Assembly (NCBI GenBank): GCA_963728565.1
Contig: CAVSLC010000014.1
Location: 64,001-128,000, forward strand
Reading direction: 5' to 3'
Source: an uncultured delta proteobacterium
Lineage (GTDB): Bacteria > Desulfobacterota > Binatia > UBA9968
DNA length: 64,000 bases
The notes under the pieces were generated by a model. It was not told the DNA's origin, searched no databases, and saw only the letters and a program-made list of their open reading frames with translations. Shown in pieces: positions 28,083 to 57,210 of this stretch (the first letter of the stretch is position 1; each line of letters starts with the position of its first letter). Position numbers and translations under genes: made by a program.

Positions 28083-29210
<1,128 letters not shown>

Positions 29211-29318: not shown

Positions 29319-29347
29319 TTGCAGTTTAGACGAATTCTTTCTATAAG
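29319..29347 (+). promoter_or_regulatory. Sigma70-type promoter candidate for coxSMG
   Basis: TTGCAG-N17-TATAAG. Confidence 0.45.
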
Positions 29348-29410
29348 TTAGGCCCAGTACTTATCCGCATCACTACAAACCATTTCGAAAATTGTGTGAA
29401 AGGGACCGCG

Positions 29411-29878: not shown

Positions 29879-29888
29879 GGACACAGCC

Positions 29889-33853: not shown

Positions 33854-34855
33854 ATGGCAATATCGCAATTAAGAAAAGACCCAGTTGTCGACCGCTGGGT
33901 GATCATCGCCACTGAACGAAGCAAGCGTCCTCATGCTAACCGAACAAGGACAGAGTCCGGCCGAGACGAACCATGTCCTTTCTGCGCCGGCAGGGAGGGG
34001 AACACGCCACCTGAAGTTCTTGCCTATCGTGATCCATCGACTCCAGCCAATACGCCCGGTTGGCGAGTCAGGGTCGTACCTAATAAGTATCCAGCTCTGG
34101 ACAGTAGGGGAGACATCTCTCTACCAACCGGTTCGGCCTACGTTGCTGTGGGCGGAGTCGGCGCTCACGAAGTAATCATTGAGAGTCCGAAACATTGCCT
34201 GAGCATGGCGGAGTTGGCTGAGGGACAGATTGACGACGTCTTGCGAGCGTATCGAGAACGTCTGATTGTTCTCCAGAACGATCGCGCTGGAAATCGATTC
34301 TTATTTACAAAAACCAAGGAAGGGCGGCGGGTGCGACCCTGGAGCATGTCCATTCGCAACTACTGGCAATGTCCATAGTTCCGCGTGAGATAGACCACGA
34401 GTGGCGCGCACTGGTCTCCCATCATGATATCGACGAAGAGCTGCCTCTATTGCGAGATGCTTGACAGGGAGCGCTCGGATGGGCGCCGCATAGTACTTGA
34501 GAGCGCGGCGTTCATTGGCTTCTGCCCATTCGCGTCTCGATTTCCCTTTGAAATCTGGCTTATGCCTAAAGAACACTCGCCCATGTTTGATTCGGTAGCG
34601 AACGACGAGCTCCGCCAACTCGCGTTCATGCTACGGCAATCCTTACAGCGCCTTGCCGCTATTGTCGATGCACCGCTTAATTACGTGCTTCATTCGGCGC
34701 CACTCAAAGAAGCGAAGCGCGAACACTATCACTGGCACCTCGAGATTTTGCCAAGAATTTCTAAAATCGCCGGGTTTGAGTTGGCGTCCGGCTATTATAT
34801 CAATACCGTGGCGCCGGAAAGCGCGGCACGGCAACTGCGCGAGCTTGCGCTCTAA
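33854..34855 (+). CDS. galT: Galactose-1-phosphate uridylyltransferase family, two compensating frameshifts (about 34285 and 34425)
   Basis: CPFC, VVPNKYP, HEVIIE; middle segment KNQGRAAGATLEHVHSQ in another frame; CLYC, HWHLEILPR, AGFEL. Confidence 0.85.
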
Positions 34856-42325: not shown

Positions 42326-43294
42326 TTGGATTTGGCGCTGGAAATTCTCCCACAGGTATTGCTGGAGGGTCTCGTACTAGGATTCATGTACGCTCTGATC
42401 GCTCTCGGCTATACCATGGTTTATGGTGTCCTGGAGTTTATCAACTTTGCTCACAGTGAAATTTTCGTCCTCGGTGCGTTTGTCGGTGTCGAAGTTCTCT
42501 TTTGGCTTCAGGACGCCGGACAACTGGCGGTCTTACATCCGGCCTTCGTCTTGTCGCTGGTGATTGCTGCCGGCATGTTGATCAGCGGCCTGGCCGCCAT
42601 GGCGCTGGAGCGTGTGGCATATCGTCCGCTTCAGGGTGGTCCGCGTCTGGTCGCGCTGATCTCCGCCATCGGCGCGTCATTTTTTCTCCAAGATGCGCTG
42701 CGTTTGTTCGAAAGTCTCTGGCGCAACACCTTTTACCTCAATTATCCGACTCTCGATGTGCTCGATGAGGTCTTACCCTTGGCAACTAATCTTGTCGTGC
42801 CGGTGAAGTCCCTGATGGTCATTGCCACCTCACTGCTTAGCCTGGCCGGCCTCTATTACTTCGTGAATCGGACGCGCATCGGCACGGCGATCCGCGCGGT
42901 CGCGCAGGATCCGGAAACCGCCTCGCTGATGGGGATTCCGGTCAATCGCGTCATTGCGCTAACATTTTTTGTCGGCGGCGCGATGGGAGGTTTGGCTGGG
43001 GTTCTGTTTGGCCTTCACTATAGCCTGGTCAATCCCTACAGCGGATTTGCGCCGGGGCTGAAAGCTTTCACCGCCGCGGTCCTGGGCGGCATCGGCAATA
43101 TTCCGGGTGCAATGCTGGGCGGCATGGTACTGGGTTTGTTGGAGGCATTCGCCGCTTCTTATCTGTCGATTCTTACCGACGGCGCCTTCGGCGCCGAATA
43201 TAAGGATGTCTTCGCCTTTCTTGTGCTGATCATGATCTTGATTTTTCGTCCTAGAGGGTTGCTGGGTGAGACCGTGCGCGAGGGCCGGGCGTGA
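42326..43294 (+). CDS. livH: Branched-chain amino acid ABC transporter permease
   Basis: YALIALGYTMVYG...NFAH, GTAIRA, KAFTAAVLGGIG. Confidence 0.93.
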   Translation: MDLALEILPQVLLEGLVLGFMYALIALGYTMVYGVLEFINFAHSEIFVLGAFVGVEVLFWLQDAGQLAVLHPAFVLSLVIAAGMLISGLAAMALERVAYRPLQGGPRLVALISAIGASFFLQDALRLFESLWRNTFYLNYPTLDVLDEVLPLATNLVVPVKSLMVIATSLLSLAGLYYFVNRTRIGTAIRAVAQDPETASLMGIPVNRVIALTFFVGGAMGGLAGVLFGLHYSLVNPYSGFAPGLKAFTAAVLGGIGNIPGAMLGGMVLGLLEAFAASYLSILTDGAFGAEYKDVFAFLVLIMILIFRPRGLLGETVREGRA

Positions 43295-44538
43295 GTGGTT
43301 CGCTACCGTCGTTGGGCTTGTTGGCATACATCGCTGCAAGCTCCGTGCTGGCCTTTGTCTTCCCCCAATCTGTCTTGGCCTTTCTCCTGGTCGAAGCTTC
43401 ATTGCTGTTGCTCTGCTACGTCTCGGCGCCGCTCAAAATAAGAATATACTTGGCTGCTTTGGTGCTGCTGATCCTGATCCCCTTCCTGGGGACGTTTAAC
43501 GGTTACTATCTGGAAGTTGCCATTCAGATCGGCATCTATGTCGCGCTTGCTCTGGGGTTGAATATCGTCGTCGGCTTTGTCGGCCTGCTCAATCTCGGCT
43601 TCGTTGCCTTTTACGCCATCGGCGCCTACCTGTGGGCGATCTTCGGTTCGCCACAAGCCAATGAATTTATTCCCGGCGGATTCTTTCCCTTGTCGGCGAA
43701 TTGGTTTTTTATCTTTCTTATTTTCAGCATCGCTGCCGGGGCGCTGACGGGAACGTTGCTGGGGCTGCCGGTGCTCCGTTTGCGCGGCGATTATCTGGCT
43801 ATCGTCACCTTGGGGTTTGCCGAGGTGGTGCGCGCGGTCGTCAACAACCTCGATAAGCCGATCAACATCACCAATGGTCCAAAAGGCATCTCCCCGATCG
43901 TTAAACCGCCGCTTTTTTTCAAACCGTGGCTGGAATTCTTCGGGTTGGAAATCGCCGATTCGACATTGTACCCGCTGTATTTTTACTTTCTCGTGCTCCT
44001 GATGGCGCTGCTCATCATTCTTATCACACGCCGACTCGAGGACTCGCGCGTCGGCCGGGCGTGGAAGGCGATCCGCGAAGACGAATTGGCGGCGTCGGCA
44101 ATGGGTGTTCCGGTGGTGCGCATGAAGCTGTTCGCGTTCGCGGTGGGCGCGTCCTTCGCTGCGGCCGTGGGAGTGTTGTTTGCCGCCAAGCAGGTTTTCA
44201 TCAATCCCGAGAGCTTTACCTTCATGGAATCCATCGGAGTTCTGGCGATGGTGATCCTCGGCGGCATGGGCTCGATTCCAGGCGCCATTCTCGGCGCTAC
44301 CGGTGTGACGATTCTCAACCTCCAATTGCTCAAGGGCCTATCGCTATGGCTCAACGGCCTGCGCCAATCAGGCGCTGAATTGACCTTGCCGCTTTTGGGA
44401 AGCTATTCGTTGAGCCAGTTGCCGGCCCAGTTCGAGCCGGCAAAATACGAACGAATGGTTTTCGGTCTGATTTTGATTCTGATGATGATTTTCCGCCCGC
44501 AAGGTATTTTGCCGCCGCGGCGCGACCGGCGAACTTAA
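43291..44538 (+). CDS. livM: Branched-chain amino acid ABC transporter permease
   Basis: LGLNIVVG, LRLRGDYLAIVTLGF, GRAWKAIREDE, RPQG. Confidence 0.93.
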   Translation: MSGSLPSLGLLAYIAASSVLAFVFPQSVLAFLLVEASLLLLCYVSAPLKIRIYLAALVLLILIPFLGTFNGYYLEVAIQIGIYVALALGLNIVVGFVGLLNLGFVAFYAIGAYLWAIFGSPQANEFIPGGFFPLSANWFFIFLIFSIAAGALTGTLLGLPVLRLRGDYLAIVTLGFAEVVRAVVNNLDKPINITNGPKGISPIVKPPLFFKPWLEFFGLEIADSTLYPLYFYFLVLLMALLIILITRRLEDSRVGRAWKAIREDELAASAMGVPVVRMKLFAFAVGASFAAAVGVLFAAKQVFINPESFTFMESIGVLAMVILGGMGSIPGAILGATGVTILNLQLLKGLSLWLNGLRQSGAELTLPLLGSYSLSQLPAQFEPAKYERMVFGLILILMMIFRPQGILPPRRDRRT

Positions 44539-45318
44539 ATGGCGCTGCTAGAGCTGCGGGATATTTCCAAACGGTTCGGCGGATTGCAGGCTTTGGCGCG
44601 GGTCAAGCTCGACATTGAATCCGGCACCATCGCCTCGCTTATCGGCCCTAACGGCGCGGGCAAGACGACACTGTTCAACATCCTGACCGGAGTCTATCAG
44701 CCGGATGGCGGCGAAATCCGTTTTCTCGACCGGACCTTGGTGGGTTTAAAGCCCGACAGAATCACCAAGGCGGGGATCAGCCGGACGTTCCAAAATATCC
44801 GCCTGTTCTCGCATATGACGGTCCTGGACAACGTGCTAGTCGGTATGCATTCGCGCATGCACACCAGTTTCGCTGAAATCCTGCTGCGCACCCGGAACTT
44901 CCACAATCGCGAAGACCGCGCGCGCAGCCGGGCAATGGAGCTGATCGAACTGACCGGCCTCGGCGGCCGTCAAGGCGAGTGGGCGCACCAGCTCTCCTAC
45001 GGAGAACAACGCCGGCTCGAGATCGCGCGGGCCTTGGCCGCAGCCCCGAAGCTGCTGCTGCTCGATGAGCCGACTGCGGGAATGAATTCCACCGAAGCGC
45101 AGTCGCTGGTTAACTTGTTCAAAGATTTGGTCGGCAGATATGTCGAAGCGATTCTGCTCATCGAGCACAATATGCGCGTGGTCATGGGCGTGTCGCATTG
45201 GGTCCATGTTCTCGACTACGGTGAAAAGATCGCCGAAGGCCATCCGGACGAAGTGCGCCAAAATCCGCGGGTGATCGAGGCCTACCTTGGCGCATGGGCG
45301 GAGCATGCTCAGCGTTAA
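44539..45318 (+). CDS. livG: Branched-chain amino acid ABC transporter ATPase
   Basis: GPNGAGKTT, RTFQN, LSYGEQRRLE, DEPTAG, VIEAYLG. Confidence 0.94.
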   Translation: MALLELRDISKRFGGLQALARVKLDIESGTIASLIGPNGAGKTTLFNILTGVYQPDGGEIRFLDRTLVGLKPDRITKAGISRTFQNIRLFSHMTVLDNVLVGMHSRMHTSFAEILLRTRNFHNREDRARSRAMELIELTGLGGRQGEWAHQLSYGEQRRLEIARALAAAPKLLLLDEPTAGMNSTEAQSLVNLFKDLVGRYVEAILLIEHNMRVVMGVSHWVHVLDYGEKIAEGHPDEVRQNPRVIEAYLGAWAEHAQR

Positions 45319-46006
45319 CGGGATCCACGTCTATTACGACGCCATTCATGCGCTGAAGGGCGTAACGTTTTCCGTCGAGGCGGGCGAGCTCGTCACGCTT
45401 CTGGGCGGCAATGGCGCGGGCAAGACGACTACCTTGAAAACAATTTCCGGACTGCTGCGTCCACGCCGCGGTAACATCGAACTGGAGGGCTGCGCTCTAG
45501 ATGAGATCGAGGCCCACGAGATCGTCCGGCGCGGGGTAGCTCATGTGCCGGAAGGCCGGAAAGTTTTTCCTCGTTTCACGGTGCTCGAGAATTTGCAGGT
45601 CGGCGGTTACAGCCGCAGCATCAAATCGCTTGCGCCCGACCTCGACTTTGTTTATCGCATGTTTCCACGCTTGCACGAACGGCAGAAGCAATACGCAGGC
45701 ACCCTGTCTGGAGGCGAGCAGCAGATGCTGGCGATCGGCCGAGCCTTGATGGCCAAGCCGAAATTATTGCTGCTCGATGAGCCATCGATGGGGCTGGCGC
45801 CAAAAATCGTCGAGCAGATTTTGGAGAACATTCGCGCAATCAACCAATCCGGCGTCACGGTTCTGCTGGTCGAGCAAAATGCCGCGATGGCCCTGGCGAT
45901 CTCGCATCGCGGTTACGTGCTCGAGACAGGCCAAGTGATTCTAAGCGGCGCGTCCAGCGATTTGGCCGGTAATGATCTGGTGCGGCAAGCCTATCTCGGG
46001 GGCTAG
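45305..46006 (+). CDS. livF: Branched-chain amino acid ABC transporter ATPase
   Basis: GGNGAGKTT, VPEGR, LSGGEQQM, DEPSMGLAP, VEQN. Confidence 0.94.
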   Translation: MLSVNGIHVYYDAIHALKGVTFSVEAGELVTLLGGNGAGKTTTLKTISGLLRPRRGNIELEGCALDEIEAHEIVRRGVAHVPEGRKVFPRFTVLENLQVGGYSRSIKSLAPDLDFVYRMFPRLHERQKQYAGTLSGGEQQMLAIGRALMAKPKLLLLDEPSMGLAPKIVEQILENIRAINQSGVTVLLVEQNAAMALAISHRGYVLETGQVILSGASSDLAGNDLVRQAYLGG

Positions 46007-46130
46007 CAGACTGCTGAAAAACCTCACATGCTTTGTTGCGTTCGATCGACTCGCTTCAACGTAGCGCATAGCTAAGCCCGCGTTCGTCGGCTTTTCGCGC
46101 GTCGCCCTTGTGAACTTTTTGAGCAGCGCG
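46006..46130. mobile_element. MITE-like element, copy 1 (about 125 bp)
   Basis: Ends CAGACTGCTGAAAAA / TTTTTGAGCAG; colinear similarity to 55185-55309; begins at the livF TAG. Confidence 0.7.
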
Positions 46131-46231
46131 GCTTGTGGCGTCCGCTAAAGCGCTGGAGCTTCGGACCGCTAGTACTCGCCGCTCAATTGCCATGTCACGT
46201 TCGACCTGCACAATTCATCGTTCACTCACAC

Positions 46232-46260
46232 TTGACAAGCCAGGCTTGGGCTCATATTTC
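46232..46260 (+). promoter_or_regulatory. Sigma70-type promoter candidate
   Basis: TTGACA-N17-TATTTC upstream of the hydantoinase A gene. Confidence 0.55.
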
Positions 46261-46289
46261 TGCAAGCAATTCACTTCGGAAGGAATTTC

Positions 46290-48401
46290 ATGGCGGCAAA
46301 GAGAAATTACATTATCGGCGTCGATACCGGCGGCACGTTTACCGATGTTGTGGTCTTGGCGGACACGGGCGAAGTTTGGACAGCAAAGGCTTCGACCACC
46401 CCGGACGATTTTTCCCGTGGTGTGATGGATGCGGTCGGCGAAGCCGCGCAGATCATGGGAGTTGAGAGTTCGGATCTTCTCGGTCGCACGACACTATTTA
46501 AGCACGGCAGCACGGTCGCAACCAACGCGTTGATCACGCGCAGCGGCGTCAAGGTGGGTCTGATTACGACTCGGGGGTTCGAAGATACCACCGAGATCAT
46601 GCGCGCGATCGGCCGGGTTGACGGTTTGTCGGATGACGAGATCAAACACGTCACCTGGATCACCAAACCAGAACCGTTCGTCCCTAGGGAGCGGGTCATC
46701 GGCGTGCGCGAGCGCATCGACTATCAGGGCAACGAAATCGTTCCGCTCAATTGGGATGATGTCATGGAGGCGATTCGCCGGCTTATCGAAGACGATAAGG
46801 TCGACGCCATTGCCGTCAGTCTCATGCATGCATGGGTGAATCCGCAACACGAGAACGAAATTCGCGCTTTGACGGCCGAAGCGGATCCGCACCGAAAAGT
46901 TTATTGGTCTTTCGGTAGTTCGTTGTCCCAAGTAGCCGGCGAGTATGCGCGCGCCAATACGGCGATTTTGAATAGCTATCTCGGACCCACGGTGGAGCGC
47001 TACTTGAAAGGCTTGGAAGACAAACTTGCCAGCGGCGGTCTCAAAGGACCGCTGTTGATCATGCAAGGTAACGGCGGCGTGGCGCATCGCGAGCACGTCA
47101 GTGCGATTGCCAACCTCCAATCCGGTCCGGCCGGCGGCATGATTGCTTCGGCTTACATTGCCGGCCTCCTCGAACACAAGAATGTCATTACCACTGACAT
47201 GGGCGGGACCAGCTTCGACGTCGGCCTTATCACCGAAGGCTATTGGCGCTATGCGCAAGAACCCATTGTCGAACGGTTCCGCATGTTGCAGCCGATCATC
47301 GATATCGAATCGATCGGCGCAGGCGGCGGCACCATCGCCCAGGTAGAAATCGAAACCGGCCGCTTGCTGGTCGGCCCGCGCAGCGCCGGCGCCAGTCCCG
47401 GACCGGTTTGTTACGACGCCGGCGGTGATCAAGTGACGGTTACCGACGCCGATCTCGCTCTCGGCATCATCGATCCCGATTATTTTCTCGGCGGTAGAAA
47501 GTCTTTGAATAAAGACAAGGCGCTTAAGTTGATCGAGGAGAAGATTGCTCAGCCTCTAAAATTAAAAGTTCATGAAGCCGCCGCCGGAGTTCACGATATC
47601 GTCAATGCCAAAATGTCCGATCTGATTCGCCGGCAAGTGGTTCGCACCGGTTATCTTCCGGAAGAATTCGTCATATACGCATTTGGCGGTGCGGGAGCGG
47701 TGCACGCTTCAGGGTTCGCCGCTGAGTTGGGGATCAAGCAGATCTATATCTTCGCCACTTCGCCGGTTTTTTCCGCTTTCGGGGCAGCCGCTGCCGATGT
47801 CATCCGCACGCGCGTGATGAGCTGCCAGTATATTTTACCGGCGGATCCGGTCGTCATAAACCAGCGACTCGAGGGCATCGAAAAAGAGATGAGCGCCGAC
47901 ATGAACCGTGAAGGGTTCAAGCCGGGCCGGGTGGAATTCCGGCGTTTCTTCACGATTCGCTACCGCCGGCAAAGCGCCGGGGTTGAAATGCCGGTTAGTT
48001 GGGATCGGTTCAATCCCAAGCGCATGACCGAAATGCAGAGCGCGTTTGAAAAGAAATATGAGGAGCTGTACGGCGTCGGTTCGGGTTATGCCAAGGCGGG
48101 CATCGAAATCAGCGAAATTCGCGTCGATGCAGTGGGCAAGGTAGCCAAGCCGAAGGTGACGGCAAAGCGGAAGAGCAACCGCGATGCCCGCTCGGCGCGC
48201 AAAGGCAAACGCGAAATATTTTTTACCCGACCCGAACGTAAATTCATCGATACTCCAGTTTACGATTACGAGCGACTTGGCGTTGGCGCCATCGTCCGCG
48301 GCCCGGCCGTCATCGAGCTGCCGTTTACTACCGCGTTGGTGCCACCGGAGCACAGGGTGAGCATTGACCCGTATTTGAACCTGGTGATGGAAGTGCCCTG
48401 A
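46290..48401 (+). CDS. Hydantoinase A/oxoprolinase-family ATP-binding subunit (acetone carboxylase beta-like)
   Basis: GVDTGGTFTD, HGSTVATN, SGPAGG, DMGGTSFD, IGAGGG, SAGASPGP.CY, FGGAG. Confidence 0.93.
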   Translation: MAAKRNYIIGVDTGGTFTDVVVLADTGEVWTAKASTTPDDFSRGVMDAVGEAAQIMGVESSDLLGRTTLFKHGSTVATNALITRSGVKVGLITTRGFEDTTEIMRAIGRVDGLSDDEIKHVTWITKPEPFVPRERVIGVRERIDYQGNEIVPLNWDDVMEAIRRLIEDDKVDAIAVSLMHAWVNPQHENEIRALTAEADPHRKVYWSFGSSLSQVAGEYARANTAILNSYLGPTVERYLKGLEDKLASGGLKGPLLIMQGNGGVAHREHVSAIANLQSGPAGGMIASAYIAGLLEHKNVITTDMGGTSFDVGLITEGYWRYAQEPIVERFRMLQPIIDIESIGAGGGTIAQVEIETGRLLVGPRSAGASPGPVCYDAGGDQVTVTDADLALGIIDPDYFLGGRKSLNKDKALKLIEEKIAQPLKLKVHEAAAGVHDIVNAKMSDLIRRQVVRTGYLPEEFVIYAFGGAGAVHASGFAAELGIKQIYIFATSPVFSAFGAAAADVIRTRVMSCQYILPADPVVINQRLEGIEKEMSADMNREGFKPGRVEFRRFFTIRYRRQSAGVEMPVSWDRFNPKRMTEMQSAFEKKYEELYGVGSGYAKAGIEISEIRVDAVGKVAKPKVTAKRKSNRDARSARKGKREIFFTRPERKFIDTPVYDYERLGVGAIVRGPAVIELPFTTALVPPEHRVSIDPYLNLVMEVP

Positions 48402-48420
48402 GACACCGAGCAGTTGAACG

Positions 48421-49434
48421 ATGGAGCAAGGGCAAAAGGAGGACCGTCGGATGATCCAGCGAGCGATCTTCGTTTTTGTCCATGCCTGGGCCTTTCTGAT
48501 GCTGCTCTGGTCGGTCTCAGTCGCCGAGCCACTACGCATCGCGGTGGGCGCGGCAAGCATCGCGACACTGCCCACCTGGGTGGCCCAGGACGGCGGTTAT
48601 TTTATGCGTGAGGGCGTGCCCATCGAGCAGATCTACATTCGCGGCGGGCCGCAGACTTTTTCCGCGCTGATCGGCGGTGACGTGCACATCGTTCAGGTCT
48701 ATAGCGCGCCGGTACTCTCGGCGCGCTTCACCGGCGCGGATGCTGTTATCATCGCCGGGCTAGTGAACCAACCGGTTTTCTCCGTCGTTAGCACTGCTGG
48801 TATCAACAAAACGGAAGATCTTCGCGGCAAGCGCATCGGCATCACCACTTTCGGCTCGGCTACGGACTTAGCCCTGCGGCTAGCGCTCAAGAAGTGGGGA
48901 CTCAAGCCCGACACCGAAGTCAATTTACTACAGATGCGCGGTGTGCCAGAAATCCTGGGAGCGCTCCAGGCAAAAGCCATCGACGCGGGTATTCTTTCGC
49001 CACCCACCAACATGGTGGCGATTAAGGCGGGGTTTAAAGAATTATCATACCTGCCACAGGCGGGAATTTCGTTTCAACACACCACACTGGCGACCACGCG
49101 CAGATATCTCGAACGGAACCGTGCCACTCTGGTCAAGGTATTGCGGGCCTACGTCGTCGCTATCGAACGCATCAAAGCCGACAAGGCTTTCACCATGACA
49201 ACAATCTCAAAACATATGCGCACCACCGACAGCGACGTATTGGAGTACAGTTACAACGCCGCGGCGCCTCTGTTCAGGGCGCCGCCTTATCCGACACTGG
49301 AAGGCATTCAATCGACACTGGACTTTCTGGCTGAAAAAGAACCAAAAGCTAAGCAGGCTCAGCCCAAAGACTTTGTCGATAATTCCCTGCTCGACGAATT
49401 GGTCAAAACCAGCGCTGACATTCCGAAGAAATGA
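48421..49434 (+). CDS. NMT1/SsuA-type substrate-binding protein
   Basis: Signal peptide, LPTWVAQDGGYF, DLRGKRIGI, PYPTLEG, FVDNSLLDEL. Confidence 0.9.
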   Translation: MEQGQKEDRRMIQRAIFVFVHAWAFLMLLWSVSVAEPLRIAVGAASIATLPTWVAQDGGYFMREGVPIEQIYIRGGPQTFSALIGGDVHIVQVYSAPVLSARFTGADAVIIAGLVNQPVFSVVSTAGINKTEDLRGKRIGITTFGSATDLALRLALKKWGLKPDTEVNLLQMRGVPEILGALQAKAIDAGILSPPTNMVAIKAGFKELSYLPQAGISFQHTTLATTRRYLERNRATLVKVLRAYVVAIERIKADKAFTMTTISKHMRTTDSDVLEYSYNAAAPLFRAPPYPTLEGIQSTLDFLAEKEPKAKQAQPKDFVDNSLLDELVKTSADIPKK

Positions 49435-49448
49435 ACTAGGAGCCAACA

Positions 49449-51671
49449 ATGAAAAAACAAAAAGAGACCATCGATCCGATTCGCTATGAAATGTTTCTCC
49501 ATCGCCTCTGGGCCATCGGTGAAGAAGGACGCATGACCCTGCAACGAGTGACCGCTTCGCCGATCGTCTCTCAAGGAGGCGAGTGCATGAGCTCCTTCTA
49601 TGACGAGACCGGCACGATGGTGCTTGCTTGCTCGGGTCACCTGCGCTTTGCCGCCGCCACTTCGGATGCGATCCGCAACCTGATGCAGCGCTTCAGCAAA
49701 ACTCCCGGTTTTCACGATGGCGACCAATTTTTTTTCAACGATCCGTATGTCGCCGGCTCGCATACTTACGACATGATGATTGTCAAACCGATTTTCTTCC
49801 GCGGCGAGTTGATCGGCTGGACAGCGACCAGCACGCACACCGCCGACACCGGAGGCGTACTCCGCGGCGGCGCCTACGAGATCTTCCACGAGGGTATCTG
49901 CATACCGGGATTGAAAATCGTCGAGAAGAACGAGTTCCGCGAGGATGTGTTTCAAACTCTGACGGGGCAGTGCCGTGATCCCCAGTACGTCGGCCTGGAT
50001 CTCAAGGCGATGATCGCGGGGAATAATATCTGCGCCAAACGATATCTTGGCTTGGTGGAAAAATTCGGGCTCAAGTTCGTGCAATTGGCCGGCGAAAAAA
50101 TGATTGAGGATTCCGAGAGCAAGGCGCGGGCAAAACTTAGATCGATGCCCGACGGCACCTGGATGACCCGGCAGTACGTCACTACCTTGGATCGCAAGAC
50201 GCGCAAATCGGTGGCGCAACAGCTCTACTGCACCATGACCAAGAAGCGCGACGAGTTGCTTTTTGACTTCACCGGCACGAGCCCGCAGACCGATACCGAC
50301 CACAATTCGACCTTGCCCAGCACCGTGGCTCATCTGGCGCTGGCGCTGACCAATACTCTTTTCTGGGACGTGCCCTGGAGCGATGGCAAGATGCGTCCGG
50401 TCAAGGTCCAGGTGCCGGAAGGATCCATTTTAAATTGCAAATATCCTGCGGCCTGCGGCGCCGGCCCGCGCATCGGCAACGTGCTCGTGTCGACGGTATG
50501 CGAGGCGGTGGCAAAAATGATCTATGCTTCCGGCCGCTACGACGACGTCAATGCATCGACCACGGGGAATTTGGAATTTGTCGGCGGCCCCGGCTACTTC
50601 TACGGCGGCCACACCCGCGAAGGGATCGCCGTTGCTCAAGGACTCTACGATATCCATGGAGCGGGAATGGGCGCCAGGCCTCACGGTGACGGCGTCAATA
50701 CCGGCGGGCATATGAATATTCCATCGGCCGGCATATCGGACATCGAGCGCATCGAAATGCAGTATCCGTTTCTTTATTTCACCCGCTCGCACAATCCGGA
50801 CGGCAGCGGCTTTGGGCAGTACCGCGGCGGCCTCGGCAGCTATCGCATCTATCTGATCTATGGTTCGAAAGATTGCAGCGTCGATTACAAACCTTATGGC
50901 GGCGTCGCTCAAGGTGGCTTTGGCCTTGCCGGCGGTTATCCTACCGGCATCGGCGCAACCCGGGTGATGATCGAAGCCGGTCTCGAAATGCTTGGCCGGG
51001 TCAAAGCAGGCGAATATCCCACGGTGGGCGCGATGCGCGCGGGGGAGTGGGGCAAATCAATCTTACCGGCGGGTGTGCCGGAGCGAGTGCCGTTGCCGGA
51101 AGGCACTTTGTTGGTCGACTATGTAGCCGGCGGTGGCGGATTCGGCGATCCCATCGACCGGGATCCAGGCGCCGTCTTGAAAGACTTCGGCTACGGCTGG
51201 GTGAGCGGGGAGATTGCGGAAAGAATTTACGGCGTCGTCTTCGCCGACAGCGGCAAGGCTGTCGACCGCGCCGCCACCGAAGATTGCCGCCGCCGAATTC
51301 GCGAAGCACGCAAGCAAGACGCGCCGATCTCGCAGAAGTCCAGCGATAAAGCCGCTGCCGATAGTAGTGACTCACGACAGCTGCTGCGCTTTCATGCGGC
51401 TTTGGAGATTATCGGCAACGGCAAGAAAAAAACCATTCGATGCAGCCGCTGCGGTCATCTCTACTGCAAGGCCGATGAAAACTACAAACATTATGCGCTC
51501 CATCGCATTCTGGATCTCAACGACTCCATGCCGCCGCTGCCGACGGGGGAGCGTTACATCGGCGAATACCACATCTATTCCTGCCCTGGCTGCGCCACGC
51601 AGCTACAGGTGGATTTGTACAGCCCGAGCTTGGGTGGCGATCCGGTTTTGTGGGATACCAGAATCGCGTGA
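49449..51671 (+). CDS. Hydantoinase B/acetone carboxylase alpha-like subunit fused to an acetone carboxylase gamma-like Zn domain
   Basis: ASPIV..GE, NDPY..GSH..D, HTADTGG, GGGGFGDPIDRDP, then IRCSRCGH...ENYK...SCPGCATQL. Confidence 0.88.
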   Translation: MKKQKETIDPIRYEMFLHRLWAIGEEGRMTLQRVTASPIVSQGGECMSSFYDETGTMVLACSGHLRFAAATSDAIRNLMQRFSKTPGFHDGDQFFFNDPYVAGSHTYDMMIVKPIFFRGELIGWTATSTHTADTGGVLRGGAYEIFHEGICIPGLKIVEKNEFREDVFQTLTGQCRDPQYVGLDLKAMIAGNNICAKRYLGLVEKFGLKFVQLAGEKMIEDSESKARAKLRSMPDGTWMTRQYVTTLDRKTRKSVAQQLYCTMTKKRDELLFDFTGTSPQTDTDHNSTLPSTVAHLALALTNTLFWDVPWSDGKMRPVKVQVPEGSILNCKYPAACGAGPRIGNVLVSTVCEAVAKMIYASGRYDDVNASTTGNLEFVGGPGYFYGGHTREGIAVAQGLYDIHGAGMGARPHGDGVNTGGHMNIPSAGISDIERIEMQYPFLYFTRSHNPDGSGFGQYRGGLGSYRIYLIYGSKDCSVDYKPYGGVAQGGFGLAGGYPTGIGATRVMIEAGLEMLGRVKAGEYPTVGAMRAGEWGKSILPAGVPERVPLPEGTLLVDYVAGGGGFGDPIDRDPGAVLKDFGYGWVSGEIAERIYGVVFADSGKAVDRAATEDCRRRIREARKQDAPISQKSSDKAAADSSDSRQLLRFHAALEIIGNGKKKTIRCSRCGHLYCKADENYKHYALHRILDLNDSMPPLPTGERYIGEYHIYSCPGCATQLQVDLYSPSLGGDPVLWDTRIA

Positions 51672-51832
51672 CTCATACCCGTTCAGGAATTGGCTCGGAT
51701 AAGGCATTCCGCATAGCACGAAATGTAAGCGCCACTGATGTAATTTGATCGAAACTAGCCGGGGAGCGAAGTCCTGTTTGATGCTAAATTATTCGTCCCC
51801 GGACGAAGCATAACGGCGCTCTGGAGGAGACA

Positions 51833-52804
51833 ATGAGATTGAGTCGATTCGCGGACATTCTTTTCGCAATAGTTTTGCTCGCCGTGGCGGCGCAAGAAAG
51901 CAGCGCGCAGGATCGTATCAGCCTCGGGATCACGACCAAGACCGGCAGCACAGGCCTGCCGTTCGTAATCGCGGAAGAGAAAGGATTCTTCAAAAGCGAG
52001 GGCCTGAACGCGGTTTCGGTTGTGATGCAGAATCAGGTCGTGGTCAACGGCGTTGTCGCTCGACAGGTCGATTATGGCGGGACCTTTTCGAATTTCGTTG
52101 GAGCGGCTCTTTCGGGCCTTCCCGTGCGCATCGTTATGGCGGTGATGGATGGCTCGGACCATTACCTGGTGACGAGCCCGAACATAAAAAGGGTTGAGGA
52201 CCTCAAAGGCAAGAAATTCGGCATCAGCAGTTTCGGCGGCACTCCGCACAGCGAAGCAGTCATGATTCTGCGGAAATTCGGCATGAATCCGGAAAAGGAT
52301 GTTACGTTTCTCCAGATCGGCGGCAGTTCTTCCCGTTATGCGGCTTTGGACAGCGGCTCCATCGACGCCGCTATGCTTGTGCCGCCTTTCAACAAGCTGG
52401 CTGCGAAAAGAGGATTCAACGAGATTCTTTCTTTTAATGAGATTATGAGCATCCCACTGGGTGGCCTGACCGTTCATACCCAGAGAATGAAAGAAAAACC
52501 CGATGAAATCGTCAGGATGATCAAGGCCATGCTGAAAGGGGTTAGTTATATTCGAAATAACCAAGCCGAGATTCTTGCAATTATGGCAAGCAAATGGGGT
52601 ATCAAAGAGGCTGACGTGCGTGAGGGCATTTACCGCGATATCGTCGGGATCTACACTCGAAACGGCGTCGCCTCCGATGAGACAATGAAGAACGTTATTC
52701 AACTGGTGCGCGACACGCGAAAGTCCAAGGATGATTTGGGTTTATCCGACGTCGTCGACTGGAGCTTTGCAAGAAAAGCACAAGCGGAATTGAAGATTCG
52801 CTGA
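51833..52804 (+). CDS. NMT1/SsuA-type substrate-binding protein
   Basis: Signal peptide, IAEEKGFFKSEGL, DLKGKKFGI, VVDWSF. Confidence 0.9.
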   Translation: MRLSRFADILFAIVLLAVAAQESSAQDRISLGITTKTGSTGLPFVIAEEKGFFKSEGLNAVSVVMQNQVVVNGVVARQVDYGGTFSNFVGAALSGLPVRIVMAVMDGSDHYLVTSPNIKRVEDLKGKKFGISSFGGTPHSEAVMILRKFGMNPEKDVTFLQIGGSSSRYAALDSGSIDAAMLVPPFNKLAAKRGFNEILSFNEIMSIPLGGLTVHTQRMKEKPDEIVRMIKAMLKGVSYIRNNQAEILAIMASKWGIKEADVREGIYRDIVGIYTRNGVASDETMKNVIQLVRDTRKSKDDLGLSDVVDWSFARKAQAELKIR

Positions 52805-52816
52805 CCTACTGTTGCG

Positions 52817-52915
52817 GTTCAAGTCGTTCAAATGGTTCAAGCCCTTCAAGTCCAATTCAGATGATTCGCGGATCCGGACGGTTTGAACTGCTTCAACGAC
52901 TTGAACCTTTTGAAC
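52817..52915. repeat. Inverted pair of 9-bp tandem arrays (4x GTTCAAnnn ... 4x TTGAACnnn)
   Basis: gttcaa at 52817, 52826, 52835, cttcaa at 52844; ttgaac at 52883, ttcaac at 52892, ttgaac at 52901, 52910. Confidence 0.85.
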
Positions 52916-52925
52916 CAGCCGTGCG

Positions 52926-53942
52926 CTAGCCGCCCAGCTTCTTGAAAAATCCCTCTTTTTCAAGTTCATCGAGCAGCGAATGATCGATGAACTCCTCCGC
53001 CGTTCGGTTTTTCAATTCTGGATTATGTTCGGCATAGAATCTGATCGTATCCCGCACACCGGTTAAGTCGACCCGCGGCGGCAGTGAAAAACGCGGCGCG
53101 AAATAATTATAGGTCGAGTGGAGCGTTTCCGCGTCATCAATGCGCATGCGTTTGGCAAACACCTTCAAGGTTCTCTCCCGGTCATTCTTCATCGCGTAGA
53201 CGGCTTCCGAGTAGGCCCGCACGAAACGCTTCACCCGATCGCGGTCTTCCCGAAGAAAACTGCCTTTGACGTAGAGAGAGGACTGCGTGAAGTTAGCGCT
53301 CATCTCGCCCATATCGGCTAATATCCGATAGCCCGCCTGAACCGCCTTGGTCAAATGCGGCGGTGAAAGTATCGTCGCGTCGGTTCGGCCGGTCATGAGG
53401 GATAAGAGCCGGGTCGGCGCATCGCCGCCGATCATGACTTGAACATCCGGCAGCTTCAAACCCCATTCCTTCAGCGCCAGCTGAAGGGCAAGATCGTTGG
53501 AACCGCCGAAGTTGAGGATGTTAACTCTCTTGCCGCGCAAATCCTTGGGTGTGCGAATCTCGGGTTTTACGATGAAGGCGTAAGGAAATTTGTTGTACGA
53601 AGCGGCGATGACTTTTAGGTCCGCGCCCCGAGCCGCGGCTACGATCGGACCGGTGGCCGAGCCTGTGGCAAACTGGGTGCTGCCGCCCAGCAGCGCCGCC
53701 ACCGACCGAGCACTGCCGTTGATCATGATTACATCGACATCCAGGCCGTGCTTATCGAATATCTTTAGATCCTTTGCCACCCACACAGTGCTTTGAAAAC
53801 CGGAGAGCCCGCCATAGTCGGCGACGAGCTTCTCCGCTGCTTGCGGGCTGCTGATCAGCATCGACACGAGCGTCAACGCTGAAACAAAGATCGAAGAGAG
53901 CTTCATCTTAACTCCTTCCGGTGGAAGACTTCGACTGAGCAC
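52926..53942 (-). CDS. NMT1/SsuA-type substrate-binding protein (likely start near 53906)
   Basis: Signal peptide, VWVAKDLKIFDKHGL, NFGGSNDLA, FIDHSLLDELEKEGFFKKL. Confidence 0.9.
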   Translation of the reverse strand: MLSRSLPPEGVKMKLSSIFVSALTLVSMLISSPQAAEKLVADYGGLSGFQSTVWVAKDLKIFDKHGLDVDVIMINGSARSVAALLGGSTQFATGSATGPIVAAARGADLKVIAASYNKFPYAFIVKPEIRTPKDLRGKRVNILNFGGSNDLALQLALKEWGLKLPDVQVMIGGDAPTRLLSLMTGRTDATILSPPHLTKAVQAGYRILADMGEMSANFTQSSLYVKGSFLREDRDRVKRFVRAYSEAVYAMKNDRERTLKVFAKRMRIDDAETLHSTYNYFAPRFSLPPRVDLTGVRDTIRFYAEHNPELKNRTAEEFIDHSLLDELEKEGFFKKLGG

Positions 53943-53984: not shown

Positions 53985-55121
53985 TCAGTTCAGTCTCGGC
54001 ATGATTTCTTTCTTGAACAGATTGAGAGAAGAAATGACTTTCTCATGAGCGAGGTTACCGATGTGGAACATGCCCATGAAGTGATCCGCGCCGATTTGCT
54101 TCATCTGATCCTGAATCTGGCGCGCAACGCTGTCGGGGTCGCCGGCGATCATATAACCACTCTTTATCAAATCGTCCCAGCCAAGCGTTGAAAAATCGAT
54201 CCGTGAACGATTGCCTTCGCGGAAGTAGTTGAAAGAGCGTTCGCTGGTGAGCTTGGCCAGGAGTTTCTGTTGATCCGCCGCTGCTTGGTTAATGGCATCG
54301 TTAAAGCCCCGATTGTAGACGGAGAAAAAATACCGCATTGCCGGCTCGGCGATCTCTTGAGCTTTCTTGTTCGAATCGTCGATATAGATGTGACGGCATA
54401 GAATAAAATCGTCCGGCTGGGCTTCCCATCCATCCTCCTTCGCCTTGCTACGGTAGTAGTTGAAGGTATCTTCGATCTGACCCGTGGTTTGGTATACCTG
54501 GGCGCACGGCAGGTGCCGCTTAACGCACCATTCGATGGACTCGGCGCTGCGCGCCGCAATCCAAATGGGCGGATGGGGTTGTTGGACCGGGCGTGGCCAG
54601 ATGGCGCAATCTTTGAGCTTGTAAAATTCTCCGTCGAAGCTCCAGACCGAATTGGTCCATGCGGTCATGATCAGATCATAAGCTTCTTGAAATCGCCCGC
54701 GAGATTCTTCCGGGTTTACTCCGTACCATACATACTCCGCGGGAATGCCGCGCACGAATCCAGCGATCAACCGGCCCTTCGAAAGGCAGTCGATCATCGC
54801 GTATTCTTCGGCAACGCGCACCGGGTGATCGCGCAGCGGAAGAATATTTCCGAGCACGCCGATTTTGATCTTCTTGGTTCTCTGGCTCAAGGCCGCGGCG
54901 ATAAGATTTGGCGACGGCATGGTGCCGTAGGAACTATAGTGATGCTCATTGAAAACAACGCCGTCCAGGCCAAGCTCTTCACAGTAGGTCATCTCGTCTA
55001 GATGTTCGGCATAGTTGGCCGCACCTTTTATCGGATCGAAAAAACTGCTTGGCACCGGCGTGCGCGGAGCGTCTTTGGGAACGTGGGGATAAGCGAGGAG
55101 ATCGAAATTATATAGCTTCAC
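53985..55121 (-). CDS. LLM-class flavin-dependent oxidoreductase (luciferase-like)
   Basis: FNEHH, PSPN, HPVRVAEEYAMID..SKGR, WPRPVQQPHPPIW, GDPDSV. Confidence 0.93.
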   Translation of the reverse strand: MKLYNFDLLAYPHVPKDAPRTPVPSSFFDPIKGAANYAEHLDEMTYCEELGLDGVVFNEHHYSSYGTMPSPNLIAAALSQRTKKIKIGVLGNILPLRDHPVRVAEEYAMIDCLSKGRLIAGFVRGIPAEYVWYGVNPEESRGRFQEAYDLIMTAWTNSVWSFDGEFYKLKDCAIWPRPVQQPHPPIWIAARSAESIEWCVKRHLPCAQVYQTTGQIEDTFNYYRSKAKEDGWEAQPDDFILCRHIYIDDSNKKAQEIAEPAMRYFFSVYNRGFNDAINQAAADQQKLLAKLTSERSFNYFREGNRSRIDFSTLGWDDLIKSGYMIAGDPDSVARQIQDQMKQIGADHFMGMFHIGNLAHEKVISSLNLFKKEIMPRLN

Positions 55122-55359: not shown

Positions 55360-56355
55360 TTATTTAACGTAGCCTTCTTTGACCAGCTGATCGACAATGC
55401 TGGTATCGATAAAGGAGGCCGGATCTGCATTTGCCGCTTTCGGAGTATTCTTTTTGATGGCTTCCAATGTGGTGCGAATCGTTTCGATCTTCGGACGAGG
55501 GCTGACATCGACCCAGTTTCTATACATGTTGTAAGCGTATTCGGTTTCTTCGCGGCTGCGGCCCAAATAGGGCGCCATGTAACTGATGGTTTTTTCTTTC
55601 TGTTCGAAAAAAAACCTCATCGCCTCAGTCGTGGCTCTCATGAAGCGCACAACGTTGTCGCGGTTGCTCTTCAAATACGAGCGTGGCAGGAGCTCCCCGT
55701 TCTGTTGCCAGGGGATGCCCAATGCCGGTAGCGCGAGCAGCATTTCATAACCGCGCTTTTCGGCGATGAGATCGAAGGGCGGGGCGAAGATGCCGAACTG
55801 CACATCGCCCGTTTCCATCGCCGCAAGAATACTCGCGGGGTCGGCGCTGGAGTGCTGAACCAGCTTTACATCCTTTTCCGGATCGATCTTCAATCGGTTC
55901 AACGCAAATCTCAGAGCGGTGTCGGGGATGGTACCGAAAGGCGCGCCGACATGGCCGGTCTTGCCTTTCAGATCGGCGATTTTCTTAATGTCTTTCTGCG
56001 CCATGATCTTATACGGAAAAACATTGACCCATGAGCCGACCAGCACGAACGGCGGCGCGCCTTCCAGTGTCGCCGTGACAAAAGCCGCCGCGCCTGCTCC
56101 GGTTGCCATCTGCATGCTCCCGCCGAGCATTGCCTGAACCGCGGCTGTAGTATTGGTCTTAACGATGCTGACATCGAGCCCGTGCTTTTTGTAGAGGTTT
56201 TCTCTCTCGGCGATGACGAAAAGGCCGGCGCCCGGATTGACGCCCGCCTGGCCGGCATTCATTTTCGCTCCCTGAGCCAAGCCCTGCGAAATCCCAAATG
56301 TCAGGATCAAGAGAGTCAGCGTCAACGTTTGTAATGAAATCCTAGCTGCATTCAT
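55360..56355 (-). CDS. NMT1/SsuA-type substrate-binding protein
   Basis: Signal peptide, IAERENLYKKHGL, DLKGK, FIDTSIVDQLVKEGY. Confidence 0.9.
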   Translation of the reverse strand: MNAARISLQTLTLTLLILTFGISQGLAQGAKMNAGQAGVNPGAGLFVIAERENLYKKHGLDVSIVKTNTTAAVQAMLGGSMQMATGAGAAAFVTATLEGAPPFVLVGSWVNVFPYKIMAQKDIKKIADLKGKTGHVGAPFGTIPDTALRFALNRLKIDPEKDVKLVQHSSADPASILAAMETGDVQFGIFAPPFDLIAEKRGYEMLLALPALGIPWQQNGELLPRSYLKSNRDNVVRFMRATTEAMRFFFEQKEKTISYMAPYLGRSREETEYAYNMYRNWVDVSPRPKIETIRTTLEAIKKNTPKAANADPASFIDTSIVDQLVKEGYVK

Positions 56356-56391: not shown

Positions 56392-57210
56392 TTACTTTTG
56401 CGGCTTCCACTTTTCCAGACGCTGCTCGAGCGCTTTGAGCAGCTCGTTCAAAGTCGCGCCGAGAACCGCGATAATAACGATGGGAACGAACATCGCCGAC
56501 ATCTGAAAACGTTGCGCCGCCACTGAGCTTAGATAGCCGAGACCGGTTGCCGCGCCGTATTGCTCGGCGACGACGATGTAGACCAATGCCCGGCCCAGGG
56601 CCACGCGCATGCCGGCGACAATGTAAGGAAGCGATCCGGGAACCGAGACTTTGAGAAAGATGGTGCTGTCCTTGGCGCCGAAGGCACGTGCCATTGTAAT
56701 CAGACGATGGTCCGTGTTGGCGATGCCCACCATGGTATTGATCAGGATCGGAAACACTGCGGCAAGGATCGTCATGATGATTTTCGATATCGGGCCCAGA
56801 CCGAAAACCATGATGATCAGGGGCAGCAAGGCAATCAGCGGAGTGGCGTAAATACCCGAGAGCAGCGGATCGAAAGCCTTGCTGAGGTTGCGATACCAGC
56901 CCATTGGAACTCCGATGACAACACCGAGTATCACCGAAATCACAAAGCCGATGGAAAAATTGGTCAGGCTGAACCGCATGTGCTCCCAGATCGAGCCGTT
57001 GGCGAAAAGCTCGTAGCCTTTGGCGAGAATCTGCGAAAATGGCGGAAAATAAAACGGATTGAGAATGTGCGTGCGGGTTGCGATTTCCCAGGCTAGAAAA
57101 AATATCAGGATGCCGATGATCCCGAGCCAGTTGGATGCAACCTCACGCAAGCGCGCCAGCCACAAGTTCGAGCTCGGCGGATGCGCCTCATCGATGGGCA
57201 CGACTTTCAA
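56392..57210 (-). CDS. SsuC/TauC-type ABC transporter permease (an out-of-frame ATG at 57259 may be the real start)
   Basis: FPPFS, PLIALLPL, FPILINT, MARAFGA, LPYIVAGMR, VVAE..GLGY. Confidence 0.9.
   Translation of the reverse strand: MKVVPIDEAHPPSSNLWLARLREVASNWLGIIGILIFFLAWEIATRTHILNPFYFPPFSQILAKGYELFANGSIWEHMRFSLTNFSIGFVISVILGVVIGVPMGWYRNLSKAFDPLLSGIYATPLIALLPLIIMVFGLGPISKIIMTILAAVFPILINTMVGIANTDHRLITMARAFGAKDSTIFLKVSVPGSLPYIVAGMRVALGRALVYIVVAEQYGAATGLGYLSSVAAQRFQMSAMFVPIVIIAVLGATLNELLKALEQRLEKWKPQK

Follow-up and report, generated by a model that had tools for sequence, protein, structure and literature searches.

We analyzed a stretch of 64,000 nucleotides (nt), hereafter called the window, within which all positions are numbered, and found that four genes on its + strand (46290-52804) encode two enzyme subunits and two binding proteins. 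From sequence comparison, the enzyme appears to be a two-gene member of the ATP-dependent ketone-carboxylase/hydantoinase superfamily and to represent an uncharacterized orthologous group of uncultured Binatia-type bacteria. One gene encodes a HydA-type subunit, and the other a HydB-type subunit that continues in frame into a domain like the gamma subunit of acetone carboxylase (Acx); this HydB-gamma fusion is genuine and conserved. A preliminary description of the stretch had listed a HydA gene, a binding-protein gene, a gene for a 740-amino acid (aa) HydB protein with a cysteine tail and a second binding-protein gene, and all four open reading frames (ORFs) were found and confirmed by Pfam (Table 1).

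The HydB-gamma fusion protein and its HydA partner

The Hydantoinase_B domain (PF02538) occupies residues 9-568 of the HydB-gamma protein (E 5e-106), and residues 649-736 match PF08882 (Acetone_carb_G) with 25.0 bits against a gathering cut-off of 21 (E 2.4e-5), as the preliminary description had anticipated in naming this family. The motifs IRCSRCGH, ENYK and SCPGC are present in the translation, and the frame is continuous, with no stop codon between the two domains. A phmmer comparison of the last 114 residues with AcxC, the gamma subunit of Acx (5m45_C), gave an E value of 0.005 and aligned the four cysteines with Cys74/76/124/127, which are the zinc ligands of AcxC (PMC5543143, a source available in part; such sources are marked "in part" below).

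In an AlphaFold2 model of the fusion protein, calculated with 146 sequences, the mean predicted local distance difference test score (pLDDT) was 91.2 and the predicted template modelling score (pTM) was 0.93. The linker between the domains was the only weak part, lowest in the block 631-640 (mean pLDDT 55), and among 17 orthologs it varies in sequence and length but always remains in frame. A Foldseek search of the model against the Protein Data Bank (PDB) returned Acx alpha (5m45_A, E 2.6e-47, TM score 0.77 normalized to the query) and the delta chain of acetophenone carboxylase (Apc; 5l9w_A, E 4.7e-47), and further N-methylhydantoinase (NMHase, 1.1e-40) and CapB of caprolactamase (4.9e-34). 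Separate matches to small chains, with a probability of 1.00, were obtained for 5svc_C (E 1.9e-4), 5m45_C (E 2e-4) and 5l9w_C (E 0.026, TM score 0.60 on the target, root mean square deviation 2.5 over 100 columns). The predicted fold of the C-terminal domain is thus like that of AcxC and of the small chain of Apc, as had been foreseen. In comparison with its free counterparts from C. metallidurans CH34, S. meliloti and two Apc-type operons, the fused gamma is a trimmed core, which lacks the N-terminal extension of AcxC (about 50 residues) and ends about 25-40 residues short of the ends of the free CH34 and S. meliloti proteins. In AcxC, a carboxy-terminal helix contacts the ATP-binding subunit (PMC5543143, in part).

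The PDB sequence matches of HydB-gamma were ApcD (E 3e-57), AcxB (3e-53), NMHase (1e-49) and CapB (9e-36), and we interpret the protein as the putative metal-site subunit, equivalent to Acx alpha and to Apc beta (the apcD product), with gamma supplied in cis. Residues E45, H105, D108 and H130 align with Glu89/His150/Asp153/His175 of Acx alpha and with Asp65/His123/Asp126/His148 of Apc, which are the metal ligands of these enzymes (PMC5543143, in part; PMC5214803), and these four residues, as well as C665, C668, C712 and C715, are invariant in the 17 orthologs (56-95% identity). Glu is the first metal ligand in 27 of 140 aligned HydB rows, of which 24 are among the 26 rows of a clade containing Acx, Apc and the window protein (see below) and 3 are among the 114 rows outside it; the two rows of the clade without this Glu are the two Apc rows. 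A caprolactamase paper gives Glu as the first ligand in Acx only, where it gates an internal channel, and the His/Asp/His core as present in all branches (PMC8453981, in part). The likeness to AcxB in the motif ASPIV..GE, noted in the preliminary description, was borne out (ASPIVEQEGE in CH34 AcxB and ASPIVSQGGE in the window), the Glu being a signature of the clade; the His/Asp/His pattern, which had also been taken as a sign of AcxB, does not discriminate, because it is conserved in carboxylases, hydantoinases and oxoprolinases (PMC8453981, in part). The window HydB scored 239 bits on the NCBIfam ApcD model (cut-off 1500) and 165 bits on the CapB model (cut-off 1000), and ApcD likewise scored above CapB for the Acx and Apc references, whereas the reverse was found for four gamma-less HydB proteins.

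The HydA protein contains the domains Hydant_A_N (E 6e-41), Hydantoinase_A (E 1.9e-86) and Hydant_A_C (E 2.1e-24), and its best solved relatives are ApcC (5l9w_B, E 8e-127), CapA (6yra_A, 1e-109), NMHase (1e-98) and AcxA (1e-96). It is predicted to be the ATP-binding subunit, equivalent to Acx beta and to Apc alpha (the apcC product), and it scores under the NCBIfam equivalog cut-offs for CapA (536 versus 1000 bits) and ApcC (456 versus 1500 bits). The sequence RERIDYQG in HydA fits R/KERiDsxG, the fingerprint of the beta-contacting Apc alpha subunit (PMC5214803). By tblastn, HydA is single-copy in the window, whereas the Apc-type loci L083 and L084 hold two. The HydA and HydB domains, the gene pair and the metal site are all as in the hydantoinase/ketone-carboxylase superfamily (PF01968 + PF02538).

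Occurrence of the fused form and its position in the family

The window protein is 98% identical to deposited proteins of Candidatus Binatia metagenome-assembled genomes (MAGs), and both Pfam domains were found in 112 of the 120 best 90%-identity clusters (67-98% identical); five of the eight clusters without a gamma call are shorter proteins. When 1.84 billion 50%-identity representatives were scanned, 10,926 matches were obtained at E up to 1e-3. A Cx(1-2)C...CxxC pattern is present in the last 140 residues of 104 of the best 150 50%-identity clusters, and PF08882 was found at E up to 0.01 in 40 of the first 70 representatives, in 36 of these at or above the cut-off. The fused form is common and is the majority state among the nearest 150 clusters, and hence no peculiarity of this one locus. 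Species-representative genomes (one per species) yielded 242 candidate stretches, 212 of which encode a relative; 79 loci were kept, almost all from MAGs titled Candidatus Binatia, 'Deltaproteobacteria' or similar, with no isolates. A cultured example was found on the plasmid NZ_CP025613.1 of Niveispirillum cyanobacteriorum TH16 (L080, 5668-19218), which carries hydA and a fused hydB-gamma at 30% identity.

That the fusion is a product of assembly or gene calling, by a lost stop codon or an indel, has a probability of practically nil. Split genes do occur elsewhere in the window, within its first 35 kb (UbiD-like, GalT and NMT1 fragments), which could reflect assembly indels or pseudogenes. 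Against an artefact, the same continuous ORF is present in the 112 independent clusters, in dozens of separately assembled genomes and on the cultured Niveispirillum plasmid, and both domains are placed in the model at high pTM. A fusion seen in this many independent assemblies is not an assembly product. A search for free gamma proteins close to the window domain (residues 627-740), which was word-based and unable to reach true AcxC, found none that was convincing; its 89 matches, almost all on contigs of 0.5-4 kb or with a HydB remnant, are most likely fragments of fused genes.

Two further arrangements were seen. The protein P0145 (1430 aa) combines HydA, HydB and gamma in a single chain (Hydant_A_N/A/C, Hydantoinase_B and PF08882). 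The loci L073, L076 and L079, on the chromosomes of L041, L043 and L058 (complete Binatia genomes), encode a second HydB-gamma paralog, 61-62% identical, with no HydA within 8 kb upstream.

In databases, proteins with PF02538 and PF08882 fused are labelled 'hydantoinase B/oxoprolinase family protein' or 'N-methylhydantoinase B', and their architecture is identical to that of the window protein. Earlier papers treat gamma as a subunit of its own that is peculiar to Acx and Apc (PMC5214803; PMC13677872 and PMC4959651, both in part), and literature searches, with most subscription journals outside their coverage, found no description of the fused form.

Trees were calculated on the HydB part only, with the gamma columns excluded (FastTree, 140 rows; IQ-TREE with LG+C20, 57 rows). 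The references, all from annotated plasmids, were acxABC of C. metallidurans CH34, the Acx-like set on S. meliloti pSymB, two five-gene Apc-type operons (Rhodococcus DK17 and Neorhizobium) and four gamma-less hydAB pairs. Their labels were checked: CH34 AcxB scored 1296 bits to 5svb_A, the best match of the Rhodococcus DK17 protein was ApcD (292 bits), and the four gamma-less HydB scored best on the CapB model, far under its cut-off. The same 26-row clade was obtained in both trees (SH-like support of 100 in FastTree, SH-aLRT of 100 in IQ-TREE), comprising the window protein, two Acx, two Apc, 10 other fused proteins and 11 without the cysteine motif. Within it, the window group branches as sister (SH-aLRT 88) to 14 rows that form a clade of their own (99) and include Acx and Apc. 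In our trees, the window HydB is apart from the four gamma-less plasmid HydB with a support of 99-100 (characterized oxoprolinases lie outside the tree). The window group is also outside the Acx pair, and the window protein is 25% identical to 5m45_A. These relationships, together with scores under every equivalog cut-off, point to the window group as the nearest sister lineage of the Acx/Apc clade and to an enzyme that belongs neither to Acx nor to Apc nor to caprolactamase. On the rooted trees, the deepest branches that carry gamma have it fused, with Acx and Apc nested well inside; therefore, it is reasonable, if unproven, that the free gamma of Acx and Apc arose by fission of an ancestral fusion.

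Binding proteins and neighbouring genes

Table 1. Positions of the enzyme genes, their parts and the neighbouring genes in the window.
Feature	Position	Strand	Evidence or remark
HydA-type subunit, 703 aa (P0001)	46290-48401	+	Pfam and PDB matches
SBP1, embedded NMT1/SsuA-type periplasmic binding protein, 337 aa (P0002)	48421-49434 (likely true start 48451)	+	Pfam NMT1
HydB-gamma fusion protein, 740 aa (P0003)	49449-51671	+	Pfam PF02538 + PF08882
Codons of the putative catalytic metal ligands (49581-49838)	E45 49581-49583, H105 49761-49763, D108 49770-49772, H130 49836-49838	+	
Variable interdomain linker, about residues 626-642	51324-51374	+	Low pLDDT, ortholog variation
AcxC-like gamma core domain, residues 643-740	51375-51668	+	PF08882, Foldseek
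Codons of the four cysteines	C665 51441-51443, C668 51450-51452, C712 51582-51584, C715 51591-51593	+	
SBP2, second NMT1-type binding protein, 323 aa (P0004)	51833-52804	+	161 bp 3' of the fusion gene
LivH/LivM/LivG/LivF-type ABC transporter (two permeases, two ATPases)	42326-46006	+	283 bp 5' of HydA; Pfam BPD_transp_2 x2, ABC_tran x2
NMT1 binding protein, convergent block	52926-53942	-	Pfam
Luciferase-like monooxygenase, convergent block	53985-55121	-	Pfam
NMT1 binding protein, convergent block	55360-56355	-	Pfam
SsuC/TauC-type ABC permease, convergent block	56392-57210	-	Pfam

The SBP1 gene is separated from HydA by 19 base pairs (bp) at the annotated start or by 49 bp at the ATG at 48451, and from HydB by 14 bp. 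Sites like a Shine-Dalgarno sequence precede the HydA ATG (AAGGA) and the HydB gene (AGGAG). For SBP1, AAGGAGG is found 7 nt upstream of the ATG at 48451, and no such site is present at the first ATG (48421); therefore, 48451 is most likely the start, which gives a normal signal peptide. A promoter and terminator scan of 45800-53100 found 2 promoter-like sites (4.0 expected) and 10 terminator-like sites (8.6 expected), none above chance.

The N-termini of both binding proteins are like signal peptides, that of SBP1 being hydrophobic. SBP1 matches NMT1 at E 1.3e-17, and also NMT1_2, and SBP2 matches NMT1 at E 1.1e-22. Their scores on the SsuA_fam model TIGR01728 (87 and 90 bits) are under the cut-off of 163.5, with the TauA/SsuA equivalogs far under, so that by these models the two proteins can be assigned only to the broad NMT1 fold family. 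PDB sequence searches gave distant relatives of the TauA, SsuA, THI5 and nitrate-transport-protein types only (E 1e-10 to 1e-3 for both proteins), for SBP1 TauA at E 2.7e-10, SsuA at 2e-5, THI5, and 3e4r, a 'Nitrate transport protein', at 3.5e-4. Two other identities were considered and dropped: SaoX/SaoP of a selenoprotein-linked transporter (described in a preprint, in part), for which the NCBIfam matches were far under cut-off, and an NMT1_2-type protein that imports bicarbonate for the enzyme, for which we found no support beyond the fold family.

The linkage of these proteins to the enzyme was evaluated by tblastn counts over the loci, with the genes in the neighbourhood tables chosen by conservation weighting. 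Of the 70 loci in which the upstream sequence is long enough, 65 have HydA directly upstream of HydB-gamma; 7 loci have too little, and 5 have ample upstream sequence but no HydA, four of these being 57-62% paralogs. In 16 of the 65 loci the enzyme genes are separated by an SBP1 ortholog (59-95% identity), HydA and HydB-gamma are adjacent in 47 (gaps of -69 to 449 bp), and there are two other cases. Many of the loci that most resemble the window have an SBP2 ortholog (71-94% identity) 3' of HydB-gamma, and some NMT1 gene is present in 43 of the 79 loci. The number of NMT1 genes per 10 kb decreased with distance from the enzyme genes, from 1.68 (0-2 kb) to 1.26 (2-4 kb), 0.35 (4-6 kb) and 0.10 (6-8 kb), which suggests a linkage to the enzyme genes, the loci being related and non-independent.

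The chance that the NMT1 proteins have no functional tie to the enzyme, and lie here by accident as members of a large scattered paralog family, is in our estimate only slightly less than even. The SBP1 gene is missing from between the enzyme genes in 49 of the 65 loci, including the 88%-identical relatives L005, L007 and L008, and no NMT1 gene was found in the retrieved flanks of 36 of the 79 loci. The NMT1 family is heavily expanded in the host genome, and the window has, far from the enzyme, at least 4 further NMT1 genes or fragments, located at 1304-2124(-), 6571-7558(-), 11885-12816(+) and 14354-14860(-); three of these four are broken into two pieces in different frames. In addition, the SsuC-type permease has no matching ABC ATPase beside it. 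A functional tie is favoured by the fall in NMT1 density with distance in these related loci, by the tight packing of the embedded gene with its own Shine-Dalgarno sequence, by the coherence of SBP1 as an orthologous group, and by the continued linkage of the binding protein/permease/monooxygenase block despite inversion. The flanking NMT1 proteins may feed an ABC importer for the enzyme substrate, a weak link. The preliminary description had read a polar substrate from the embedded binding protein; since only a minority of loci have SBP1 between the enzyme genes and the genome is rich in NMT1 paralogs, the case for a polar, imported substrate is weak, though such a substrate is possible.

Pfam analysis of the neighbouring genes found no type-I binding protein beside the Liv transporter and no ATPase beside the SsuC-type permease. 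All NCBIfam matches of the convergent-block and Liv genes were under cut-off (Liv/Urt-type for the transporter, equivalogs for the block). The Liv genes are also found before HydA in L001, L002 and L007, and some of them in L008 and L005. The genes of the convergent block are upstream of HydA on the + strand in L011, L012, L016, L020, L024, L032 and L040, and therefore the association of this block with the enzyme survives rearrangement.

The neighbours of the orthologs differ by sub-clade. The closest relatives (83-98%) have the permease/binding protein/luciferase-like monooxygenase block, often with intradiol-dioxygenase-like and dienelactone hydrolase genes. In the group at about 78%, a thiolase-like/DUF35 pair is directly 3' and a citryl-CoA-lyase-family gene is upstream. 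In the complete Binatia genomes (about 75%), a citryl-CoA-lyase-family gene is directly 3', UbiD-like and SDR genes are upstream, and the other strand encodes a doubled family III CoA-transferase, an enoyl-CoA hydratase and a 2-hydroxyacid dehydrogenase. These coenzyme A (CoA)-ester genes, in loci at about 75-84% identity, fit the processing of a carboxylated acid as a CoA ester. The Niveispirillum locus has an IclR regulator gene 5' and, 3', genes for a dienelactone hydrolase, two alpha/beta hydrolases, a LigB-type ring-cleavage dioxygenase, a class II aldolase, a TonB receptor and an MFS transporter; the dienelactone hydrolase and dioxygenase-like genes here and near the closest relatives hint at a link to aromatic breakdown. 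Over L036-L074 (Binatia genomes) and L013, L015, L029, L044, L064 and L068, the conserved neighbours are the citryl-CoA-lyase-family gene (283 bits versus a cut-off of 193), the doubled family III CoA-transferase (812 aa), enoyl-CoA hydratase, the thiolase-like/DUF35 pair and two copies of a 366-aa protein without a Pfam or NCBIfam match.

Elsewhere in the window, at 28101-31279(+), a zinc alcohol dehydrogenase gene is followed by genes for the small (2Fe-2S) and medium (FAD) subunits of a CO-/xanthine-dehydrogenase-type enzyme and CoxG, with no large molybdopterin subunit among the ORFs scanned. Split or truncated genes include a UbiD-like gene in two frames at 12887-14237(+), the N and C halves of GalT as separate ORFs at 33854-34855(+), a LacI-type ligand domain without the DNA-binding part at 3227-3943(-) and a lone TPP_enzyme_C at 8654-9262(+). 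The split genes are either pseudogenes or assembly indels, and two junctions that were inspected had no obvious homopolymer. The guanine + cytosine content is lower in the first ~10 kb of the window (0.49-0.53).

Predicted function and comparison with known enzymes

AcxABC (Xanthobacter autotrophicus, PDB 5M45/5SVB/5SVC; CH34) shares with the window enzyme the HydA-type ATP and HydB-type metal subunits, the Glu/His/Asp/His site including the channel-gating Glu, a PF08882-type four-cysteine module (the metal of which is predicted in the window protein) and the well-supported HydB clade, and its alpha chain 5m45_A is the best structural match. It differs in having three genes, in the order acxABC (PMC5214803; also seen in loci L081 and L082), whereas the window has two enzyme genes with gamma C-terminal on the metal subunit; in a complete gamma of about 165 aa that has an N-terminal extension as well as a C-terminal helix, whereas the window has the gamma core only; and in the absence of a binding-protein gene between the enzyme genes such as is found in the window, the HydB of which has about 25% identity to its Acx counterpart and is outside the Acx clade.

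ApcABCD(E) (Aromatoleum aromaticum, PDB 5L9W; Rhodococcus Acr type) provides the best sequence matches for both large subunits and shares the RERID..G interface fingerprint in HydA, the HydB clade and a short gamma without the N-terminal extension, as in the Apc small subunit 5l9w_C. In contrast to Apc, the window lacks a second HydA-type subunit (alpha'), has Glu instead of Asp as the first metal ligand, has gamma fused instead of encoded between two HydA genes, and scores far under the NCBIfam equivalog cut-offs (239 and 456 versus 1500 bits). The gene 3' of the fusion encodes an NMT1 binding protein, and no recognizable epsilon (~30 kDa) was found, this subunit being too divergent for exclusion by sequence (PMC13677872, in part). 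The gamma-less hydrolases (CapAB 6YRA, N-methylhydantoinase 7HK5/9H03, 5-oxoprolinase and HyuAB) have in common with the window enzyme the two-gene hydA-hydB layout, the folds, the His/Asp/His core and operons that are often near ABC binding-protein genes; they differ in the absence of gamma, in Asp as the first ligand and in a HydB that is about 150 aa shorter. With respect to caprolactamase, the window proteins are under both the CapA and CapB cut-offs (536 and 165 versus 1000 bits).

We put the chance that the enzyme carries out an ATP-dependent carboxylation of an enolizable carbonyl compound at about even, with a share for acetone and other short ketones included, and the substrate is probably other than acetone itself. 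By analogy with the structures of Acx, Apc and CapAB, the core of the complex would be a HydB dimer, each HydB being joined by one HydA. HydA would spend ATP on the phosphorylation of the enolizable carbonyl substrate and of bicarbonate, the intermediates would travel by an internal channel, with the Acx-type Glu as its gate, to the HydB metal, and there a C-C bond would be formed to give a beta-keto acid. The gamma domain would most likely be a structural zinc clamp on HydB, supplied in cis, with no part in catalysis.

A number of observations weigh against carboxylation. The authors of the Apc structure place gamma far from the active site and consider it dispensable for catalysis (PMC5214803); therefore, the presence of gamma is no proof of carboxylation. 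Caprolactamase is also bicarbonate-dependent (PMC8453981, in part), and hence bicarbonate chemistry is not exclusive to carboxylases. In pairwise comparison, HydB-gamma scored 173 bits with NMHase, close to the 184 bits with AcxB, and the Niveispirillum fused protein scored higher on CapB (243 bits) than on ApcD (203 bits), which means that gamma is also found on a CapB-like HydB. The trees were rooted on four uncharacterized gamma-less plasmid HydB, with the characterized CapB, OplB, HyuB and NMHase outside the tree. As to the pathway, the window contains no thiolase, CoA-transferase or citryl-CoA-lyase gene next to the enzyme, and neighbourhoods differ between sub-clades, which weakens the pathway reading.

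The alternative of an ATP-dependent lactamase or hydantoinase-like hydrolase, which would open an imported polar cyclic amide and carry gamma as a structural add-on, seems to us possible but rather unlikely. It would account for the two-gene hydAB order, which is that of the hydrolase branch (PMC5214803), for the higher score of HydA on the CapA than on the ApcC model, for the fused gamma on CapB-like proteins and for the metal site, which as D/E-H-D-H is common to hydrolases (PMC8453981, in part); moreover, gamma-less plasmid hydAB operons (L085 and L086) also adjoin ABC binding-protein genes, and an M24 peptidase gene (creatinase-type fold; F25) is near some related loci. Opposed to hydrolysis are the fully supported clade that HydB forms with Acx and Apc, from which the four gamma-less HydB are separated, the Acx-type Glu in place of the Asp of CapB and homologs (PMC8453981, in part), the higher score of HydB on the ApcD than on the CapB profile, and the description of characterized hydrolases as gamma-less (PMC5214803; PMC13677872, in part). 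The preliminary description had proposed a two-subunit ATP-dependent carboxylase or lactamase; a two-gene, probably ATP-dependent, Acx/Apc-like enzyme with gamma fused agrees with our results, and of these two functions the carboxylase is somewhat the more probable. The probability left by carboxylation and hydrolysis falls to a chemistry new to the family.

AcxABC forms acetoacetate, AMP and 2 Pi from acetone, bicarbonate and ATP. Within the carboxylase reading, a Binatia version of acetone or short-chain-ketone carboxylase, with the substrate of AcxABC in a two-gene package, is improbable. The Glu gating ligand and the ASPIV motif, as in AcxB, and the four-cysteine gamma core speak for it, as do the thiolase-like genes 3' in about a dozen related loci, given that acetoacetate-handling genes follow the acx and acr operons (PMC13677872, in part). 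However, the window HydB is outside the Acx clade at about 25% identity to AcxB, its gamma is without both terminal parts of AcxC, the tail placed at the contact with the ATP subunit among them, and the closest relatives are flanked by binding-protein, monooxygenase, dioxygenase-like and dienelactone-hydrolase genes, not by acetoacetate genes. In an Arctic Ocean study, deep-branching AcxB-like clades were called uncertain in substrate (PMC13714315, in part).

A further, tentative reading, which we hold to be somewhat improbable as a whole, is the following: the two-gene, gamma-fused form would be the ancestral and by far the most diverse form of the biotin-independent ATP-dependent carboxylases, Acx and Apc would be derived by a gene split, and the window group would act on a transported polar carbonyl, possibly an aromatic ring-cleavage product, with its products handled as CoA esters by the thiolase, citryl-CoA-lyase and CoA-transferase genes of related loci. 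If this is true, uncultured soil bacteria would hold over 100 family-level clusters of CO2-fixing or ring-opening enzymes that await study. To our knowledge, the acetone and acetophenone carboxylases are the only studied cases of biotin-free, ATP-driven carboxylation of unactivated ketones, and they are of interest for CO2 capture chemistry. In what appears to be their nearest sister lineage and in most of the surrounding sequence space, gamma is fused to the catalytic subunit, giving a simpler two-gene enzyme that would also be easier to express and to analyze structurally. This calls into question the search for ketone carboxylases by way of a free gamma gene; a 2026 survey began with free gamma homologs and excluded uncultured sources. 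The fused enzyme may point to a new substrate class in Binatia, a widespread uncultured soil lineage.

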